From: Aulosira sp. ZfuVER01
GTDB lineage: Bacteria; Cyanobacteriota; Cyanobacteriia; Cyanobacteriales; Nostocaceae
NCBI GenBank assembly: GCA_034530615.2
Contig: JAVRCV020000006.1
Span: 96,001-160,000, forward strand
Length of the DNA stretch: 64,000 nucleotides
Reading direction: 5' to 3'
Shown: one piece after another, positions 17,003-24,547 of the stretch
How the letters are laid out: each line of letters begins with the position of its first letter
Position numbering within the stretch: the first letter of the stretch is position 1
The notes under the pieces: model-generated
What the model was told of the DNA's origin: nothing
Databases searched by the model: none
The model's input: only the letters and a program-made list of their open reading frames with translations
Translations under genes and position numbers: made by a program

Positions 17003-17425
17003 GTGGCGTACTGGGTGAAAATCCTTTACGAGAGGAAAAAATACGTAGTCAATTTCGACCGTATTAATGCCTTTTGTTATGAACAAAACGGCAGAGTAAC
17101 CTTTTGGCTACCCGATTCTGCTATTCCAATTGTGATTAACCCACAAAGTAACCCGCAAGATTATCAAAAAATTTTGAAATACATAGAACGTGTGACAGGT
17201 TTGGAACTAGATGATGCCTATTGGGTGAAAATTATTTATGAAAACAACGAATATGTAATTAACCTGACTTGCATCAGTTCCTTTTGCCAAGAATCTAACG
17301 GCAGGATAACTTTTTGGTTACCTGATGGTACTATTCCCATCGTCATCAATCCTGTAAGTAATCCAGAGTCTTATCAAAAAGTTTTGCAATATGTCCAAAA
17401 AGCGACAGGGTATTCGTTGTCTTAA
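17003..17425 (+). CDS. Hypothetical protein made of two ~70-aa internal repeats
   Basis: AYWVKI.YE...YV.N...I..FC...NGR.TFWLPD..IPIVINP.SNP..YQK occurs twice; SD GAGGAG before the GTG start. Confidence 0.85.
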   Translation: MAYWVKILYERKKYVVNFDRINAFCYEQNGRVTFWLPDSAIPIVINPQSNPQDYQKILKYIERVTGLELDDAYWVKIIYENNEYVINLTCISSFCQESNGRITFWLPDGTIPIVINPVSNPESYQKVLQYVQKATGYSLS

Positions 17426-17920: not shown

Positions 17921-18194
17921 GGGTGTATCCCTTGTATAGTATTTTAAAGCTAGCTTGCCTTAGCGAAGGTGCATTTCGGTTCAGCAATATTCGCAAATAA
18001 TTGCAATTTTTATAAAAATTAATTTAAGTCATTTTACGAATGTCAATTTAAGTTGGGGGTGCGAAGTAACAACAAAACTTGTTGTCCTAACGACAGAGGT
18101 TACGGAAGTAACGACAGCTTCTTTATAAGCGCGATCGCACTTTGCCGGAAACTATAAATACTGCGTCCCTTTATCTTCTCGTCCCCATGTCTTC

Positions 18195-21100
18195 TTACCG
18201 CCACCATCGCCCTACATCCACAACCCCATGCGCAATTTCTGCCATTGTCGCTTCACCACCCAACGCAAAGATAACTGGAAACAACGCCTTGATATCTGGT
18301 AGCAAGATAGGGCGAGTGTGAAGGGACAGCTCGTGCAGGACATCTCGCCAGAAGGGGAAAATGTCCCCAGACAGTATTTGTGAACAACCGGAAGCTAATG
18401 CTATCAGGACTTGGACACGAGACTCCTCAGACTCAATTGCCCTAGCAGTGGAGAGTGCTTCTTTTAACAACTCTGGTGGTAGTTTCTCAGCTAATGCTAT
18501 CAGGAGTTCGGCGCGAGACTTCTCATGCTCAATTGCACTAGTAGTGGTGAGTGCTTCTTTTAATAACTCTGGTAGTTTCTTGGCTAATGCTATCAGGACT
18601 TGGGCACGATCGCTATCATTCTGAATTTCTCTGGCGGCGGTAAGTACTTCTTTTAACAACTCTGGTGGTAGTTTCTCGGCTAATGCACTCAGGACTTGGG
18701 CGCGATTCCACTCAGACTCAATCATCCTGGCGGTGGAGAGTACTTCTAGTAATAACTCTGGTGGTAGTTTCTCGGCTAATGCACTCAGGACTTGGGCGCG
18801 ATACTTCTCATCCTGAATTTCTCTGGCGGCGGTAAGTACTTCTTTTAACACCTCTGATGGTAGTCTCTCGCCTAATGCTATCAAGAACTCGGCGCGATAA
18901 TAATCATCCTCAATTACCTTAATGGCAGAGAGTACTTCTTTTAACAACTCTGGTAGTCTCTCGCCTAATGCTATTAAGAACTCGGTGCGATTGCCGTCGT
19001 ACTCAATTGCCTGAATGGCGGAGATTACTTCTTTTAAAAACTCTGGTCGTAGTTTCTTGGCTAATGCGATTAGGACTTGGGCGCGATAATTATCATACTC
19101 AATCGCCATAGCAGTGGTGAGTGCTTCTTTTAACAACTCTAGTGGTAATTTATCGGCTATTTCACTCAGGGCTTCGGTGCGATTCCACTCAGACTCAATC
19201 GCCTTCACGGCAGTAAGCGCCTCTGGCAATAATTCAGGTAGTTTCTCGCCCAATGCTATCAGGACTTGGGCACGATAGCTATCATTCTGAATTTCTCTGG
19301 CGGCGGTGAGTGCTTCTTTTAACAACTCTGGTGGTAGTTTCGCAGCTAATGCTATCAAGGCATTGGCGCGAGACTTATCATCCTGAATTGCCTTAGCGGC
19401 AGTGAGTGCTTCTTTTAACAACTCTGGTGGTAGTTTTGCAGCTAATGCTATCAAAGCTTTGGCGCGAGACTTATCATCCTGAATTGTCATAGCAGTGGTG
19501 AGTGCTTCTTTTAACAACTCTGGCGGTAGTTTCTCGGCTATTTCACTCAGGCTACGGCCGCGATACCACTCATCTTGAATCGCCCTAGCAGTGATGAGTG
19601 CATCTGGCATCAACTCTGGCGGTAGTTTTTCGGTTAATGCACTCAAGACATCGACGCGAGACTTCTCATCCTGAATCGTGTTCACGGCGGTGAGTACTTC
19701 TTTTAACAACTCTGGTTTTAGTTTCTCGGCTAATGCAATCAGGACATCGGCACGATACCCCTCATCCTGAATTGCCATAGCAGTGATGAGTGCTGCTTTT
19801 AACAATTCTGGTGGTAGTTTTTTGACTAATGCAATCAGGACATCGGCACGATGCCCCTCATCCTGAATTGCCATAGCAGTGGTGAGTGCTGCTTTTAACA
19901 ACTCTGGTGCTAGTTTTTTGACTAATGCTTTTAGAGCCTCGGCGCGATACCACTCATTCTGAATCGCCTGAATGGCGGAAAGTACTTCTAGCAACAACTC
20001 TGGTGGTAATTTCTCGGCTAAGGCAATCAAGGCATTGGTGCGAGACTCCTCATCTTGAATTGCCTGAATGGCGGAGAGTACTTCTAGCAACAACTCTGAT
20101 GGTAGTTTCTGGGCTAATGCTATCAAGGCATCGGCGCGAGGCTTCTCATCCTGAATCGCTCTAGCAACAGTGAGCGCTTCTGTTAACAACTGTGGTGGTA
20201 GTTTCTCGGCTAATGCACTTAGAGTAGGGGTGCGATAATACTCATTCTGGATCGATCCAGCACAGGCTAGTGCTGCTTCTAACAATTCTGGTGGTAGTTT
20301 CTTGGCTAGTGCAATTAGCGCATTGGTGCGATCGCTATCAGGGTAAATCACCGTAGCAGTGGTGAGTGCTTCTGGCCACAACTCTGGCAGCTTCTCGGCT
20401 AATGCACTCAGAGCTTTGGCTCGTTGAGCTTTAGACTCAAGTGCTCTAGCAGTGGTGAGCGCTTCTTTTAACAACTCTGGCGGTAGTTTCTCTGCTAATA
20501 CTATCAGTGCAAGGGCGCGATAGAACTCGATTTGAATCGCCGTAGCAGTGGTGAGTGTTTCTGTCCACAACTCTGGCAATTTCTCGGCTAATACAATCAG
20601 GACTTCGGCGCGATACTGCTCATCCTGAATCGCCCTAGCAGCAGTGAGTGCTTCTTTTAACAACTCTGGCGGTAGTTTCTCAACTAATTTACTCAGGGCA
20701 TTGGCGCGCTTGCCCTCATACTGAATCGCACTGACGTTGTTGAGTGTTTCTGTCCACAACTCTGGCTGTTTCTCGGCTAATGCAATTAGTGCTAGAGCGC
20801 GATCGCTATCATCCTGAATTGCCCTAGCGTCAGTGAGTGCTTCTGGACAAAACTCTGGTAGTTTCTGGATTAATGCACTCAGAGCTTTGGCTCGATACTC
20901 CTCATACTCAATCACCCTGGCAATAGAGAGTGCTTCTTTTAACAACTCTGGTGGTAGTTTCTCGGCTAATGCTATCAAGGCATCAGCGCGAACATAATCA
21001 ATCTCAATCGCCTTGGCGGCGGAGAGTGCTTCTTTTAATAACTCTGATGGTAGTTGCTTGGCTAATGCTATTAAGGCATTGGCGCGATCGCTCTCATCCG

Positions 21101-23237
21101 GTATTGCCTTGGCGATGGTAAGTGCTTCTTTCCACAACTCTGGTGGTAATTTCTCAGCTAATACACTCAACGCATTGGCGCGATAGTAGTCATTCCTAAC
21201 TGCCATAGAGGCGGTGAGTGCTTCTGTCCACAACTCTGGTAGTTTCTCGGCTAATGCTATCAGTGCAGGAGCGCGATCGCTATCATCCTGAATTGCCCTA
21301 GCGGTAGTGACTGCTTCAGAAAGTACTAGTTTCTCTAAATTGGCTGGCAAATAGTTGACTAACTCAACAACAGTTTCTACTTTCTCCTTTGGTTCTGGTT
21401 TTTGCAGGGCGTAAGCTAATCCCTGTTCAGGAGTCCAGATTTTATTTTTGACTAACGCCACCAGCATTTTGGCAGGTAAATTAGCTGCCAAACTATTCAA
21501 GGAAGCTGTAATCAAAGCATAGCGACACTGCAAACCTACCACTTGAGGCAGTGTTGATTCACTCCAACTCGCTTCAGCTAATTCCCAAGCACGAAAAATA
21601 TCTGTGATGTAACCTCCAGTTTGTCCCACTTTCTCCCGCGCTTCATGCCAGCCATTGCTTCCTGTTAGCGATTCCTCCCACAATAAAGAGTGAATTTCTT
21701 CTACCCGTTCAGCCTTTTCTAAATGCCAAACTAAATTTTGATGAATGTAACCATCATTAGCTAAGGTATGCCAGAGGTTGTTTTGCGTCTTTTGTTGATA
21801 GCGTTCTAGCAGTTGGCTGTGTGCAGCAATTAATTCCAAACCCATCCCTACAGGAGGAGATTTAGTTAAGCGATTACGAGCGACATCATGTAATAAGTCA
21901 TGTAACCTGTAGCCTCTCCACTCGACACCCCCAACAAATACAGGTGCATCAGATTGAAGTAAGGCATCATTCCAAAGTAGCTCTAAACATTCATTAGCTT
22001 CATCCTGGGATTTCATCTCCCATAATGTCACGGCCATTGGTGCGGCTATGGTGACATCTTCTGGTAACACTCCCAACCAAATAAAATTTTCCCAGGCTTG
22101 TTGGTCGTAGTCTTGTAAAGCTTTCAGGCTTAAATTAAAAGTTGCTTCTAAAGAATTTTCTTGACGCGGCCCGTATAAGACTTTTAAATTTGCAACCTCT
22201 TGTTTCAAAGCGGTTTCCAGCTTCTCCCATGTAATTCCCCATTTGACTCTGGCTGCTACTAAATTCAGAGCAATGGGCAGGTATCCTACAGTTTCGGCTA
22301 CTCTCAAAGCCTCTGGTTTTTCTACTTCTGTGATTTCTCGTTCTAAAGACTTAGAAAGTAATTCCAGCGATTCTGCTGGCGTCATCAAATTCAATTTCTG
22401 CAAATAAGCACCAACGCTATCAGCCACATCAGCCCGCCGCGAAGTAATTAATAGCTGCGATTGGGAACCTGCTACCATAAAGGGTTTAACTTTATCTGGT
22501 TCCCAAGCATCATCAACTACTAATAAAACTGTTTTATCATGTAGCAAACTTCGCAAATGTGTTGAAGTTCCCTCTACATTCACAGCACGAAATTCGTAGT
22601 CTCCCAAGGCTTGCACCCAGCTACTTAGTAGGGCAAGAATATCTGGTTCTTGTCCTAAAGTTGCCCAAAGCACACCACCAGAAAAACGTTTTTGGATATC
22701 CTCATCATGGGCAAGGGCTGTAATTAAAGTTGTCTTACCTATGCCACCTAAACCGTGAATTGCACTGATGAGCAACGCACCAGCAGCAGATGTATTTGCC
22801 AGTAGACGAGCTTTGATTTCTACAGTAACTTGTGGGCGATCGACAAAATTAGCAGGTAAACTCGGTGCTTGAAAAGGTCTGTCAATTGGGCGACGATAAT
22901 TAATAGTCAGGCTGCCTTCTACTCGACCGACAATAATATTGTTGTCACCCTTGATATTTTGCACGACATTTTCGTTACCGGAAATTGTTTGTGCAAACTC
23001 AGGCTGAATATGGGGATTTAAACTAGTTACAGCAGCTTCATCCTTTTCTGCGTTACCTAAAATTGGTTGTTTAACCTGAGACGGAATCTGAGGATTTAAA
23101 TTAGTTTTAGCAACTTCATTTCTCAGTAGATGTTGCTGACGTTTTAATCTTCGACGCTTCCCTTTTAAAAAGCCAGCTAACTTAGATAAAAAAAGTCTTA
23201 TCCGCTTCCATAACCTTCTCAGGCTGATTTTTTGCAC
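18195..23237 (-). CDS. NLR-like STAND protein: N-terminal putative amyloid motif, NB-ARC, APAF1-like helical region, ~31 HEAT/TPR-like repeats
   Basis: Walker A GLGGIGKT, Walker B LLVVDDAW, ITSR, GYLPIAL (GLPL-like) and LHDLLHD (MHD-like); SD GGGAG before the GTG start. Confidence 0.92.
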   Translation of the reverse strand: MQKISLRRLWKRIRLFLSKLAGFLKGKRRRLKRQQHLLRNEVAKTNLNPQIPSQVKQPILGNAEKDEAAVTSLNPHIQPEFAQTISGNENVVQNIKGDNNIIVGRVEGSLTINYRRPIDRPFQAPSLPANFVDRPQVTVEIKARLLANTSAAGALLISAIHGLGGIGKTTLITALAHDEDIQKRFSGGVLWATLGQEPDILALLSSWVQALGDYEFRAVNVEGTSTHLRSLLHDKTVLLVVDDAWEPDKVKPFMVAGSQSQLLITSRRADVADSVGAYLQKLNLMTPAESLELLSKSLEREITEVEKPEALRVAETVGYLPIALNLVAARVKWGITWEKLETALKQEVANLKVLYGPRQENSLEATFNLSLKALQDYDQQAWENFIWLGVLPEDVTIAAPMAVTLWEMKSQDEANECLELLWNDALLQSDAPVFVGGVEWRGYRLHDLLHDVARNRLTKSPPVGMGLELIAAHSQLLERYQQKTQNNLWHTLANDGYIHQNLVWHLEKAERVEEIHSLLWEESLTGSNGWHEAREKVGQTGGYITDIFRAWELAEASWSESTLPQVVGLQCRYALITASLNSLAANLPAKMLVALVKNKIWTPEQGLAYALQKPEPKEKVETVVELVNYLPANLEKLVLSEAVTTARAIQDDSDRAPALIALAEKLPELWTEALTASMAVRNDYYRANALSVLAEKLPPELWKEALTIAKAIPDESDRANALIALAKQLPSELLKEALSAAKAIEIDYVRADALIALAEKLPPELLKEALSIARVIEYEEYRAKALSALIQKLPEFCPEALTDARAIQDDSDRALALIALAEKQPELWTETLNNVSAIQYEGKRANALSKLVEKLPPELLKEALTAARAIQDEQYRAEVLIVLAEKLPELWTETLTTATAIQIEFYRALALIVLAEKLPPELLKEALTTARALESKAQRAKALSALAEKLPELWPEALTTATVIYPDSDRTNALIALAKKLPPELLEAALACAGSIQNEYYRTPTLSALAEKLPPQLLTEALTVARAIQDEKPRADALIALAQKLPSELLLEVLSAIQAIQDEESRTNALIALAEKLPPELLLEVLSAIQAIQNEWYRAEALKALVKKLAPELLKAALTTAMAIQDEGHRADVLIALVKKLPPELLKAALITAMAIQDEGYRADVLIALAEKLKPELLKEVLTAVNTIQDEKSRVDVLSALTEKLPPELMPDALITARAIQDEWYRGRSLSEIAEKLPPELLKEALTTAMTIQDDKSRAKALIALAAKLPPELLKEALTAAKAIQDDKSRANALIALAAKLPPELLKEALTAAREIQNDSYRAQVLIALGEKLPELLPEALTAVKAIESEWNRTEALSEIADKLPLELLKEALTTAMAIEYDNYRAQVLIALAKKLRPEFLKEVISAIQAIEYDGNRTEFLIALGERLPELLKEVLSAIKVIEDDYYRAEFLIALGERLPSEVLKEVLTAAREIQDEKYRAQVLSALAEKLPPELLLEVLSTARMIESEWNRAQVLSALAEKLPPELLKEVLTAAREIQNDSDRAQVLIALAKKLPELLKEALTTTSAIEHEKSRAELLIALAEKLPPELLKEALSTARAIESEESRVQVLIALASGCSQILSGDIFPFWRDVLHELSLHTRPILLPDIKALFPVIFALGGEATMAEIAHGVVDVGRWWR
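18393..21300 (-). repeat. About 31 tandem coding repeats of 93/96 bp (31/32 aa)
   Basis: Consensus [DE]xxRAxALIALAEKLP(P)ELLKEALTAARAIQD, counted by eye. Confidence 0.9.
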
Positions 23238-23269
23238 TGTGTTAACTCCCCAATATTCTGCCTCTTTAA

Positions 23270-23719
23270 CTAATTGATAGTTACATGATCTCCTGCTCTA
23301 GCAATAGACTTATTACCATCACCCGCAATATTCTGCACTTGGTTCTCATTGCCAGAGATTGTTTGATTAAAGCTATTCACAACTTTAGAAATTGTGTCTG
23401 CATCTTCCTGCATTAAACGAGCAATTTCCGCAGCTAAATTTTTATCTTCATCGAGTAATTTCTTGAGTTGTTTCTGGAGTGTTTCCTTGGCATCTGCATC
23501 ATCAGGAGAACTTGCCAACTCTTCTGCTGCACCTTTCGCCATTGGCTTGGCTTCTACCTTTGGTTGCAACTTACTCCACAAAGATTTAGCCTTTTCCCAG
23601 TCATTAGCGCCCAAGCTTTCACCCAGTTTCTTACCAGCTTCTTCGGCTGCTGTCTGTCCTACTTTGAGCAAGTACGGTAAAAATGGGGTTAAGAAAGTAG
23701 TTAAAGTTACTATATCCAT
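23270..23719 (-). CDS. Small helical Bell-like putative effector with a C-terminal putative amyloid motif
   Basis: Start MDIVTL (SD GGAG 7 nt upstream); hydrophobic N-terminal helix, then WEKAKSLWSKL and PDDADAKETL; C-terminal QTISGNENQVQNIAGDGNKSIARAGDHVTIN matches the NLR N-terminus. Confidence 0.8.
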   Translation of the reverse strand: MDIVTLTTFLTPFLPYLLKVGQTAAEEAGKKLGESLGANDWEKAKSLWSKLQPKVEAKPMAKGAAEELASSPDDADAKETLQKQLKKLLDEDKNLAAEIARLMQEDADTISKVVNSFNQTISGNENQVQNIAGDGNKSIARAGDHVTIN

Positions 23720-23887
23720 TTGTTTACTCCGATTGTAAAGACGTAGAATACTGGTCAATTACCACAAATGACTCTGTATTAACATCTAAAGAATCAGGGG
23801 TCAAACTCAGGGGAAATACTTAATATGGTCGCCTAGTTTGGCGATCGCTACCTCTGTTACGTACTAGTAAATGCGATCGCCTACTCA

Positions 23888-24436
23888 TTACTCACCAGCA
23901 AAGAAAGCAAACTCCGATTTAATATTCCAACGCCTACCGTCGTGAATTAATAAAGTCAACTTGTCGGCAGTAAACTCAAAATGTAACTGCCGATTTTCAA
24001 ATTCTGGCCAAGCTGCTTTAAAGTTCTGTCGCGTTAAGTCCCGAAAAGCCACTGTCATGTGGGGTGCAAAGGGGCGAGTTTTGCCAACTTTGTCTACAAT
24101 GCCCAAACTTGCTTCTACATACGCCATTAAATCTGCTTGCAGAGTCAACAGTTCTTGGCTTCTCACCACATCTATATATATGACGCGGGGGGCAAAGGCA
24201 GCAAACCCACTCAGCGTAACGGGTAGTGGTTTTTGTTCGCTAGCAAACTCCCTAATAGATGCTTCTAGCCGTGACACATCGCTATTTGCCCATTCAAAAG
24301 GCGGTTGCAGCGTAATGTGAGGCGGAGACTTTTGCGCATGACTGCTGGCGTAGTTGTCAGCAAAGTACTGCTTGATTTGATTAGCGTAATCTTGAATGTC
24401 TTGCGGTGGTAGTAGGGCAATAAAAAAGCGGCTCAT
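23888..24436 (-). CDS. 2H phosphoesterase (2'-5' RNA ligase family)
   Basis: Two HxT motifs: PPHITL and PHMTV. Confidence 0.9.
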   Translation of the reverse strand: MSRFFIALLPPQDIQDYANQIKQYFADNYASSHAQKSPPHITLQPPFEWANSDVSRLEASIREFASEQKPLPVTLSGFAAFAPRVIYIDVVRSQELLTLQADLMAYVEASLGIVDKVGKTRPFAPHMTVAFRDLTRQNFKAAWPEFENRQLHFEFTADKLTLLIHDGRRWNIKSEFAFFAGE

Positions 24437-24547
24437 TCAATTTTGGATTTTAGATTTTGGATTTTAAATTAAGATTGAGCAGCAAAGGCTGGTAGGAAGA
24501 TATTACAACTAGATGACGATGGAAAAATTCTAGAGGTTGAAAGTTAA

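Follow-up and report, generated by a model that had tools for sequence, protein, structure and literature searches.

A probable Bell/BASS-NLR module with a shared 31-residue motif in the cyanobacterium Aulosira sp. ZfuVER01

Introduction

Bell domains and ten families of bacterial amyloid signalling sequences (BASS) were defined by Dyrka et al. from one layout of gene pairs, in which a small effector and an adjacent NOD-like receptor (NLR) share a short sequence motif (10.1101/2020.01.06.895854). According to the accessible text of that work, 91.3% of the pairs are collinear with short gaps, BASS7-10 are specific to cyanobacteria, and fibrils and prion behaviour have been shown for BASS1 and BASS3. 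The Bell domain is described there as an all-helical domain of about 100 residues, N-terminal in proteins of 120-140 amino acids and modelled with five helices, in which the N-terminal helix is hydrophobic and is preceded by an acidic residue at position 2 or 3. Here, we analysed a stretch of 64,000 nucleotides from the cyanobacterium Aulosira sp. ZfuVER01 (contig JAVRCV020000006.1, positions 96,001 to 160,000 of the forward strand), hereafter referred to as the window. It contains a gene for a 149-residue protein followed by a gene for an NLR, and a reading made from the sequence alone had proposed that a putative amyloid motif of 31 residues links the two products. Our analysis indicates that the two genes quite probably form a Bell/BASS-NLR module, as known from filamentous bacteria.

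Several described systems resemble this pair. In Escherichia coli, the Bab/Agp system confers a BASS11-dependent abortive infection, in which BASS11 forms amyloid and signals by templating; in the accessible part of the report, it is the only bacterial case with a shown defence function (Ibarlosa et al., 10.1101/2024.11.07.622273). Like the pair in the window, it has a small helical protein with a hydrophobic first helix, whose C-terminal motif has its match at the N-terminus of the sensor encoded next to it. However, as described there, its sensor has the architecture TPR-GreA/B-C-PIN and is not an NLR, its Babybell domain has about 80 residues compared with 121 in the window, and its motif, of about 20 residues, belongs to another class. 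No sequence or fold match between the window protein and Bab/Agp was detectable by Foldseek, by VIA or by profile searches of solved structures. In the fungal HET-S/NWD2 system (motif HRAM), as summarised in the available sources, a motif at the N-terminus of the NLR likewise templates the prion-forming C-terminus of a pore-forming helical protein from a neighbouring gene; this system is eukaryotic and combines a HeLo domain with an NLR of the NACHT-WD type, its effector has two pseudo-repeats, and it shows no sequence relation to the window pair. The systems of NTPases coupled to effector-associated domains (EADs) also have paired short modules, on an effector and on an adjacent NTPase, which co-vary by lineage (Kaur et al., PMC7159879). 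In the accessible text, the EADs are homotypic adaptors and mostly helical, whereas the window motif has no match among the Pfam EAD models. Some relatives of the Bell protein bear tails of the EAD10 type, and EAD10 heads an Agp-like architecture in the available part of a second paper (PMC8195603). Finally, the BASS9/BASS10 pairs of Nostocales share with the window pair the Bell family (47-52% identity, over residues 1-111 to 1-137), the architecture and the genus, but their tail motif is unrelated and their NLRs have TPR repeats rather than 32-residue HEAT-like ones.

The closest catalogued entry is an orthologue of the window pair. The Bell protein of locus L002, one of the related loci gathered below, is 90% identical to that of the window. 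Compared by eye, the C-terminal 100 residues of this protein read like BAY13571.1 in the file Bellside_class_not_assigned ('BASSother'; PMC8086366 supplement 1), and the first 150 residues of its NLR read like BAY13572.1 in the file NLRside_class_not_assigned of the same supplement. The Bell-side file of Dyrka et al. thus prints the C-terminus of an orthologue 90% identical to the window protein, which indirectly places the latter among the Bell proteins that their homology search recovers, and an orthologue of the pair has already been catalogued, without a family name. The novelty implied by the sequence-only reading therefore does not hold, since pairs of this kind are published and the orthologue is in the data set. 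The pair BAY13571.1/BAY13572.1 agrees with that of the window in motif, gene order and NB-ARC partner; it comes from another genome, and its two motif copies have 18 identities compared with 19. In the literature, we found it listed in the data files, with no family name, description or experiment. Pairs of the 'class not assigned' are those missed by the profile hidden Markov models (HMMs) of BASS1-10 (PMC8086366). The sequence-only reading could assign the window motif to no named BASS family, and the motif appears to lie outside BASS1-BASS11: its orthologue was filed as unassigned by the authors, and it gave no EAD10 match at E ≤ 1. A literature search found no BASS12 or later family, and a 2025 paper, in its accessible text, still gives ten bacterial families (PMC12261475). 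The tails of paralogous pairs correspond, by eye, to entries of BASS9, BASS10 and BASS7 in the supplement of PMC8086366. A possible likeness of the window motif to BASS4 entries of that supplement, from a comparison by eye, was considered and set aside.

Results

The shared motif

The C-terminal tail of the small protein aligns without gaps to a segment that precedes the NB-ARC domain of the NLR (Table 1), with 19 identities over 31 residues. Eleven of these 19 residues are encoded by different codons, and 58 of the 93 nucleotides are identical. On recomputation, the counts of identities and of differing codons were the same as those of the sequence-only reading, and so were the coordinates of both copies, the length of the small protein and the start of the NLR 32 nt past its stop codon. 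When the tail was slid over the 3,814,040 31-mers of all six-frame open reading frame (ORF) segments of the 8.03-Mb genome, the NLR copy gave 19 identities and the runner-up 12. An HMM built from both copies and run against 70,412 six-frame ORF segments found only these two genes, with E-values of 1.3e-20 and 3e-18, followed by a match at 0.014. Because that search is circular, it was redone with each motif singly. In these phmmer searches the other gene was the top non-self match (E 0.0014 and 8.9e-5), and the following matches had E-values of 0.075 and 8.4. The match between the two copies is far beyond chance.

The effector and NLR copies contain 5 and 6 Asn, 3 and 2 Gln, and 4 and 4 Gly, respectively, so that these residues make up 12 of 31 positions in each, and neither copy has a Pro. 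The motif is thus rich in N, Q and G and free of proline, as had been noted from the letters, and on the NLR side it is flanked by Pro-rich segments. BASS-type motifs generally have about 20-40 residues, with many Q, N, G, V and I and few P. The pseudo-repeat of about 10 residues that had also been described is visible, with Ile at positions 121, 131, 139 and 148 and Gly at positions 123, 133 and 143, but it is loose.

Both copies are, as judged from aligned sequences, under purifying selection among orthologues. The ratio of the proportions of nonsynonymous and synonymous differences (pN/pS) is 0.37 for the tail motif (14 orthologues), 0.20 for the helical part of the Bell protein and 0.19 for the NLR copy (13 orthologues), in which 14 columns are invariant among 16 aligned orthologues. 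Within each of 13 genomes, the two copies have a pS of 0.54-0.98 and yet 13-19 identical residues out of 31, and each side of the pair holds its own conserved consensus. Synonymous sites near saturation, together with retained protein identity, indicate that the likeness is old and has been kept at the protein level, as the sequence-only reading had argued, and that it does not stem from a fresh duplication or gene conversion. A short motif shared by the C-terminus of an effector and the N-terminal region of an NLR, encoded by adjacent collinear genes, is the layout of BASS-type pairs.

Table 1 Features of the Bell/NLR locus (positions in the window).
Feature	Position	Strand	Details
Bell-type effector gene	23270..23719	minus	ATG at 23719, stop TAG 23272-23270, 149 aa
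Helical Bell domain, aa 1-121	23357..23719	minus	AlphaFold2 model; N-terminal hydrophobic helix aa 3-17, D2
Effector-side 31-aa BASS-type motif, aa 119-149	23273..23365	minus	ungapped match to NLR motif
Intergenic spacer, 32 nt	23238..23269	minus	GGGGAG (23251-23246) 8 nt ahead of GTG
NLR gene	18195..23237	minus	GTG start at 23237, 1680 aa
NLR N-terminal extension, aa 1-82	22992..23237	minus	basic amphipathic stretch, then Pro-rich linker
78-nt tandem duplication	22973..23119	minus	1.9 copies, 78% matches
NLR-side 31-aa BASS-type motif, aa 83-113	22899..22991	minus	ungapped match to effector tail
NB-ARC, aa 141-350	22188..22817	minus	PF00931, E 2.6e-22, 79.7 bits (cut-off 23.5)
APAF-1-type helical domain, aa 471-520	21678..21827	minus	PF17908, E 2.1e-6, 28.1 bits (cut-off 22.8)
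Sensor repeats, 30.7 x 96 nt (31/32 aa)	18394..21317	minus	Tandem Repeats Finder; helical-hairpin units, HEAT-like solenoid
Accessory 5.8-kb segment with both genes	18110..23882	.	missing from two close relatives

The Bell-type protein

A database search gave 71 homologues of the small protein, and all the source-named ones are labelled hypothetical. The latter come mostly from Nostoc, Brasilonema, Desmonostoc, Kamptonema and Leptolyngbya, with one Chloroflexi record. An upstream in-frame TTG would lengthen the protein to 162 residues; all 71 homologues, however, have their first residue at the Met-Asp start or close to it. The motif class of the window occurs in 23 of the 71. The protein matches no Pfam, NCBIfam or PADLOC family over the cut-off, and the Pfam and NCBIfam matches under threshold are of the coiled-coil type only. 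Upstream of the gene, no promoter site was detected in a consensus scan, which is an uninformative result.

The AlphaFold2 model, built from 51 sequences, has seven helices over residues 3-121, with a predicted template modelling score of 0.70. The mean predicted local distance difference test score (pLDDT) per 10-residue block is 76-93 over residues 1-120, and it falls below 50 for the tail, residues 123-149, which is disordered in this monomer model. The Met-Asp start leads into a hydrophobic helix, and D2 is invariant among the 22 closest homologues, while P12, P15, L17 and W48 are invariant across all 51 sequences. A helical N-terminal domain, a hydrophobic first helix and an acidic position 2 are the features of a Bell domain, and the Bell-like effector of the sequence-only reading is borne out by them. 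The protein is larger than the Bell proteins of Dyrka et al., with 149 residues and seven helices compared with 120-140 residues and five. A search of its profile against PDB sequences gave nothing under E 0.13, which has no bearing on whether the fold is new.

The NLR and its repeats

The partner is an NB-ARC NLR, as had been proposed, with Walker A (GLGGIGKTT) and Walker B (LLVVDDAW) motifs legible in its translation. A Pfam scan found no recognisable effector domain of its own. The C-terminal part of the protein consists of tandem repeats with a period of 96 nt and 72% matches, and a pattern search of the sensor region recognised 29 units of 31 or 32 residues. The AlphaFold2 model of residues 640-960 is all helical and forms regular hairpins (pLDDT 89.9). 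The best Foldseek matches of this model were HEAT solenoids, among them CAND1 at a TMq of 0.68 and PP2A-A at 0.66. NLRs typically have C-terminal repeats of the TPR, WD, ANK or LRR type; the unit found here gave no match to the Pfam repeat models at E ≤ 1, and its closest clusters in the Atlas are without names. Residues R13 and L17 of the unit are invariant, and positions 5, 9, 11, 12 and 15 are variable, with an entropy of 2.2-3.0 bits. By their sequence, the repeats recall the internally conserved, surface-variable NLR repeats described in the accessible text of Dyrka et al. (10.1101/2020.01.06.895854).

The N-terminal extension of the NLR is kept in most orthologues of the Nostoc type. It is absent or short in loci L029 and L035, and it is replaced by a double zinc ribbon in L034, a Fischerella record. 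There is no in-frame ATG, GTG or TTG between the GTG start and the motif. The 78-nt duplication in this region gives a degenerate, Pro-containing half copy immediately upstream of the motif, and this two-copy layout is present in orthologues too. A consensus scan found no terminator-like site within the spacer between the two genes.

Co-variation across related gene pairs

To compare related gene pairs, 100 loci were gathered, 20 from the genomes of relatives and 80 from named records, the search of which had found 177 relatives among 279 candidate stretches. Seventy-six loci were usable, with a complete Bell ORF of 100-260 residues and a downstream ORF on the same strand of at least 150 residues; the 24 that lacked either of these were dropped. 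Each Bell tail was then scored by local alignment against the first 200 residues of the partner. The sequence-only reading had expected homologous pairs to share matching motifs, and the median score was indeed 62.5 for the cognate partner compared with 25 for the partners of unrelated tails. The cognate score topped every partner of an unrelated tail in 48 of the 76 pairs. The 28 misses comprise 7 loci of a clade whose NLR lacks the motif, 12 with neither a STAND nor a CHAT domain in the downstream ORF, and 9 with a STAND partner and a weaker or missed match.

The relatives have a common N-terminal Bell domain and tails of quite different classes. Grouped by eye, there are about 10 visibly distinct motif classes, each of which matches its own partner. 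For the class of the window, there are 19 loci with a motif on both sides, in records named Nostoc, Brasilonema, Calothrix, Rivularia, Fischerella and Oscillatoria; a BASS family is defined by recurrence in at least 5 gene pairs together with co-variation, and the 19 are to be read as loci that are kin. In most of the 76 loci the downstream partner is a STAND NTPase: at least 39 partners have NB-ARC, 10 nSTAND1, 3 NACHT and 2 iSTAND, 4 have generic AAA/ATPase matches only, and 2 show TPR only, while 3 have CHAT, 7 are unrelated and 6 have no domain.

Members of the Bell domain family in L059, L060 and L068 are paired with CHAT (caspase-like) proteins that bear a matching motif. Moreover, the tail of relative P0044 matches Pfam EAD10 over the cut-off (E 2.4e-6, 27.9 bits, cut-off 24.1), and that of P0047 stays under it with 20.7 bits.

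The seven loci of the motif-less clade (L007-L011, L015 and L099) are paralogous, and their NLR has no N-terminal motif and no obvious start. Their Bell ORF ends in C_CCA_AAG TAA (5 loci) or A_AAA_AAG TAA (2 loci). Both are slippery heptamers of the classic -1 type, and the frame of the NLR, which is -1, stays open across the heptamer (junction at L007:1840-1990 and equivalents). This arrangement suggests that the clade may make a Bell-NLR fusion by programmed -1 frameshifting. A frameshift fusion was also considered for the junction in the window and was rejected, as the Bell ORF ends there in ACT ATC AAT TAG, with no slippery heptamer.

Discussion

In the mechanism that we favour, the NLR would be the sensor, with its NB-ARC ATPase and about 30 HEAT-like repeats of 32 residues that have variable surface positions, and the 149-residue protein would be the executioner. 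At rest, the Bell domain would sheathe the hydrophobic N-terminal helix, and the 31-residue tail would be unfolded. The repeats would bind a ligand, most likely of phage or other non-self origin, and ligand binding would lead the NLR to oligomerise, which would cluster several of its N-terminal motifs. The clustered motifs may then take a cross-β fold and template the matching tail of the Bell protein, whose folding would free the N-terminal helix to attack the membrane and cause the death of the cell in the filament. We infer amyloid formation, templating, membrane attack and a role in defence by analogy, from the literature and from E. coli Bab/Agp.

This reading is weakly supported by a complex prediction in which one Bell tail was combined with three NLR motif segments. 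The prediction gave a score of 0.49, compared with 0.02 for the best of three controls, with at least 91% contact agreement among runs and a partner pLDDT of at least 64. Of 157 solved complexes, 116 reach the mark that it passed, as do 2 of 215 mismatched pairs; at scores of 0.60 or less, it is reached by 18 of the 157 solved complexes and by both of the passing mismatches. The prediction used custom alignments, and the type of job is unlike the calibration set.

Several results weigh against this reading. In searches for a fold in common with helical death domains of the Babybell, HeLo or MLKL type, the Bell model had no match in the PDB at E ≤ 0.001 with Foldseek, and the best Z in a wide VIA structure comparison was 4.3. 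The putative kinship of the protein with pore-forming helical domains therefore rests on the sequence pattern and on the classification by Dyrka et al. Likewise, the BASS1-10 profile HMMs miss the motif class of the window (PMC8086366), and its amyloid behaviour is thus extrapolated from other classes. The NLR copy of the motif lies 82 residues into the protein, behind a conserved basic extension, while the usual place is the extreme N-terminus. Because the loci compared are kin, the 48 of 76 pairs overstate the number of independent events. The pair is surrounded by housekeeping genes rather than by a defence island, and neither the Bell protein nor the NLR falls in any PADLOC family at E ≤ 0.01.

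The main rival of amyloid templating, which we consider unlikely, is that the shared motif acts as an EAD-like homotypic adaptor and binds its counterpart in an ordinary stoichiometric way, for example by β-strand pairing. The EADs of Kaur et al. are indeed paired, adjacent-gene, co-varying and non-enzymatic homotypic modules, and the accessible text of these papers makes no mention of amyloid (PMC7159879, PMC8195603); moreover, EAD10 is recognised on the tails of two relatives, over the cut-off in one and under it in the other, and the weak pass of the complex prediction is equally compatible with plain binding. However, the EAD10-headed TPR-GreA/B-C-PIN proteins, in the available part of PMC8195603, have the architecture of Agp, whose BASS11 forms amyloid (10.1101/2024.11.07.622273), and at least one 'EAD' is thus an amyloid motif. 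The window protein itself gave no such EAD10 match, and a tail that is rich in N, Q and G, free of proline and disordered in the model suits an amyloid signalling motif better than a folded adaptor. It is less likely still, and in our view quite improbable, that the small protein regulates the NLR, as a cap or inhibitor which is seated on the NLR motif and keeps the receptor silent, while the NLR acts via something else. Since the NLR has no recognisable effector domain, the direction of signalling is not readable from the sequence, and the degenerate half copy and basic extension of the NLR would fit such a role. Against it, the acidic position 2, the hydrophobic helix and the invariant P12, P15 and L17 form a pattern that, in the accessible descriptions, is common to the Bell, HeLo-like and Bab death domains. 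Furthermore, the tails of Bell relatives match partners as diverse as NB-ARC, nSTAND1, NACHT, iSTAND and CHAT proteins, which fits a common output module better than a specific inhibitor, and some loci have long, presumably fused ORFs that bear a Bell domain, for example of 560 and 1029 residues.

A last alternative, which we reject for the window locus as having almost no chance of being right, would make the likeness of the two copies a relic of duplication or gene conversion, or would make the two genes a single frameshifted one, with no signalling role for the motif. In this genome, the NLR reading frame does extend without a stop for 25 nt ahead of the Bell stop codon, and slippery heptamers do occur at the Bell/NLR junction of the paralogous clade. 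Yet synonymous divergence is near saturation in the 13 genomes while protein identity has been retained, and each side of the motif has its own conserved consensus. The window junction lacks a heptamer, and the NLR has its own GTG start preceded by GGGGAG. In addition, gaps of +19 to +186 separate the two frames in orthologues, so that they do not overlap, and L002 has a different frame offset.

A further claim, which we put forward tentatively and hold somewhat less probable than its opposite, is that the motif represents a distinct, as yet unnamed BASS family of heterocyst-forming and some filamentous cyanobacteria, marked by its 31 residues, the half copy and extension, a new sensor of hypervariable HEAT-like repeats of 32 residues, and a sister clade that would have lost the motif on the receptor side and use the frameshift in its stead. 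In a MAFFT alignment, the 31-residue motif appears to consist of the motif of about 22 residues found in Leptolyngbya-type relatives plus one unit of about 10 residues. The degenerate half copy and the basic extension could serve to gate nucleation or to place the nucleus at the membrane. If true, the frameshift fusion of the sister clade would mean that the same killer can be wired to the same kind of sensor in two interchangeable ways. With this locus, the Bell/BASS-NLR class gains a well-documented example from cyanobacteria, with a motif that is unnamed yet occurs in 19 pairs and a sensor repeat type beyond TPR and WD. It opens no new question; the design principle and an orthologue of the pair are already published. 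Relatives in which the chromosomal site is empty offer natural controls for a function in defence or cell death in filamentous cyanobacteria.

Genomic setting and other observations

The neighbouring genes encode CTP synthase, an Amidase_3 protein, an NDH subunit, a LigT-like phosphoesterase, QueF, a phosphate-binding protein and ResB, and PADLOC gave no match for any of them. In two close relatives, G008 and G006, sequences that are 88-94% identical to the flanks of the pair (window 17529-18109/18111 and 23883/23892-24055/24062) are spaced by 177 and 115 nt. As the flanks nearly adjoin in these genomes, the intervening part of the window is an accessory segment (Table 1). No target duplication, no direct or inverted terminal repeats and nothing transposon-like were found at its borders. 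In a third genome, G001, the pair is on another contig than the LigT gene. Orthologues with at least 82% identity are present in 3 of 15 genomes of the genus, including this one, and Bell-domain paralogues in 11 of the 15. Palindromes of the type GCGATCGC are located near both borders of the segment (window 18129-18148 and 23838-23880). Such palindromes are common in genomes of this kind.

Another Bell/NLR pair, which is of the BASS9/BASS10 type, lies in the same genome on contig C3 (71564-74413), close to a contig end. The Bell ORF of this pair has no N-terminal hydrophobic helix, and its open frame begins within the domain. At window 17003-17425, there is an ORF of 140 residues that consists of two mutually repeating halves of about 70 residues and matches no family over the cut-off; the halves, which were compared with relatives, are about 69% identical in DNA. 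Between the LigT-like and YCII genes, at window 24432-24477, there is an element of about 40 nt that recurs at hundreds of sites with 85-100% identity in 15 of 15 genomes of the genus and looks like a short dispersed repeat.

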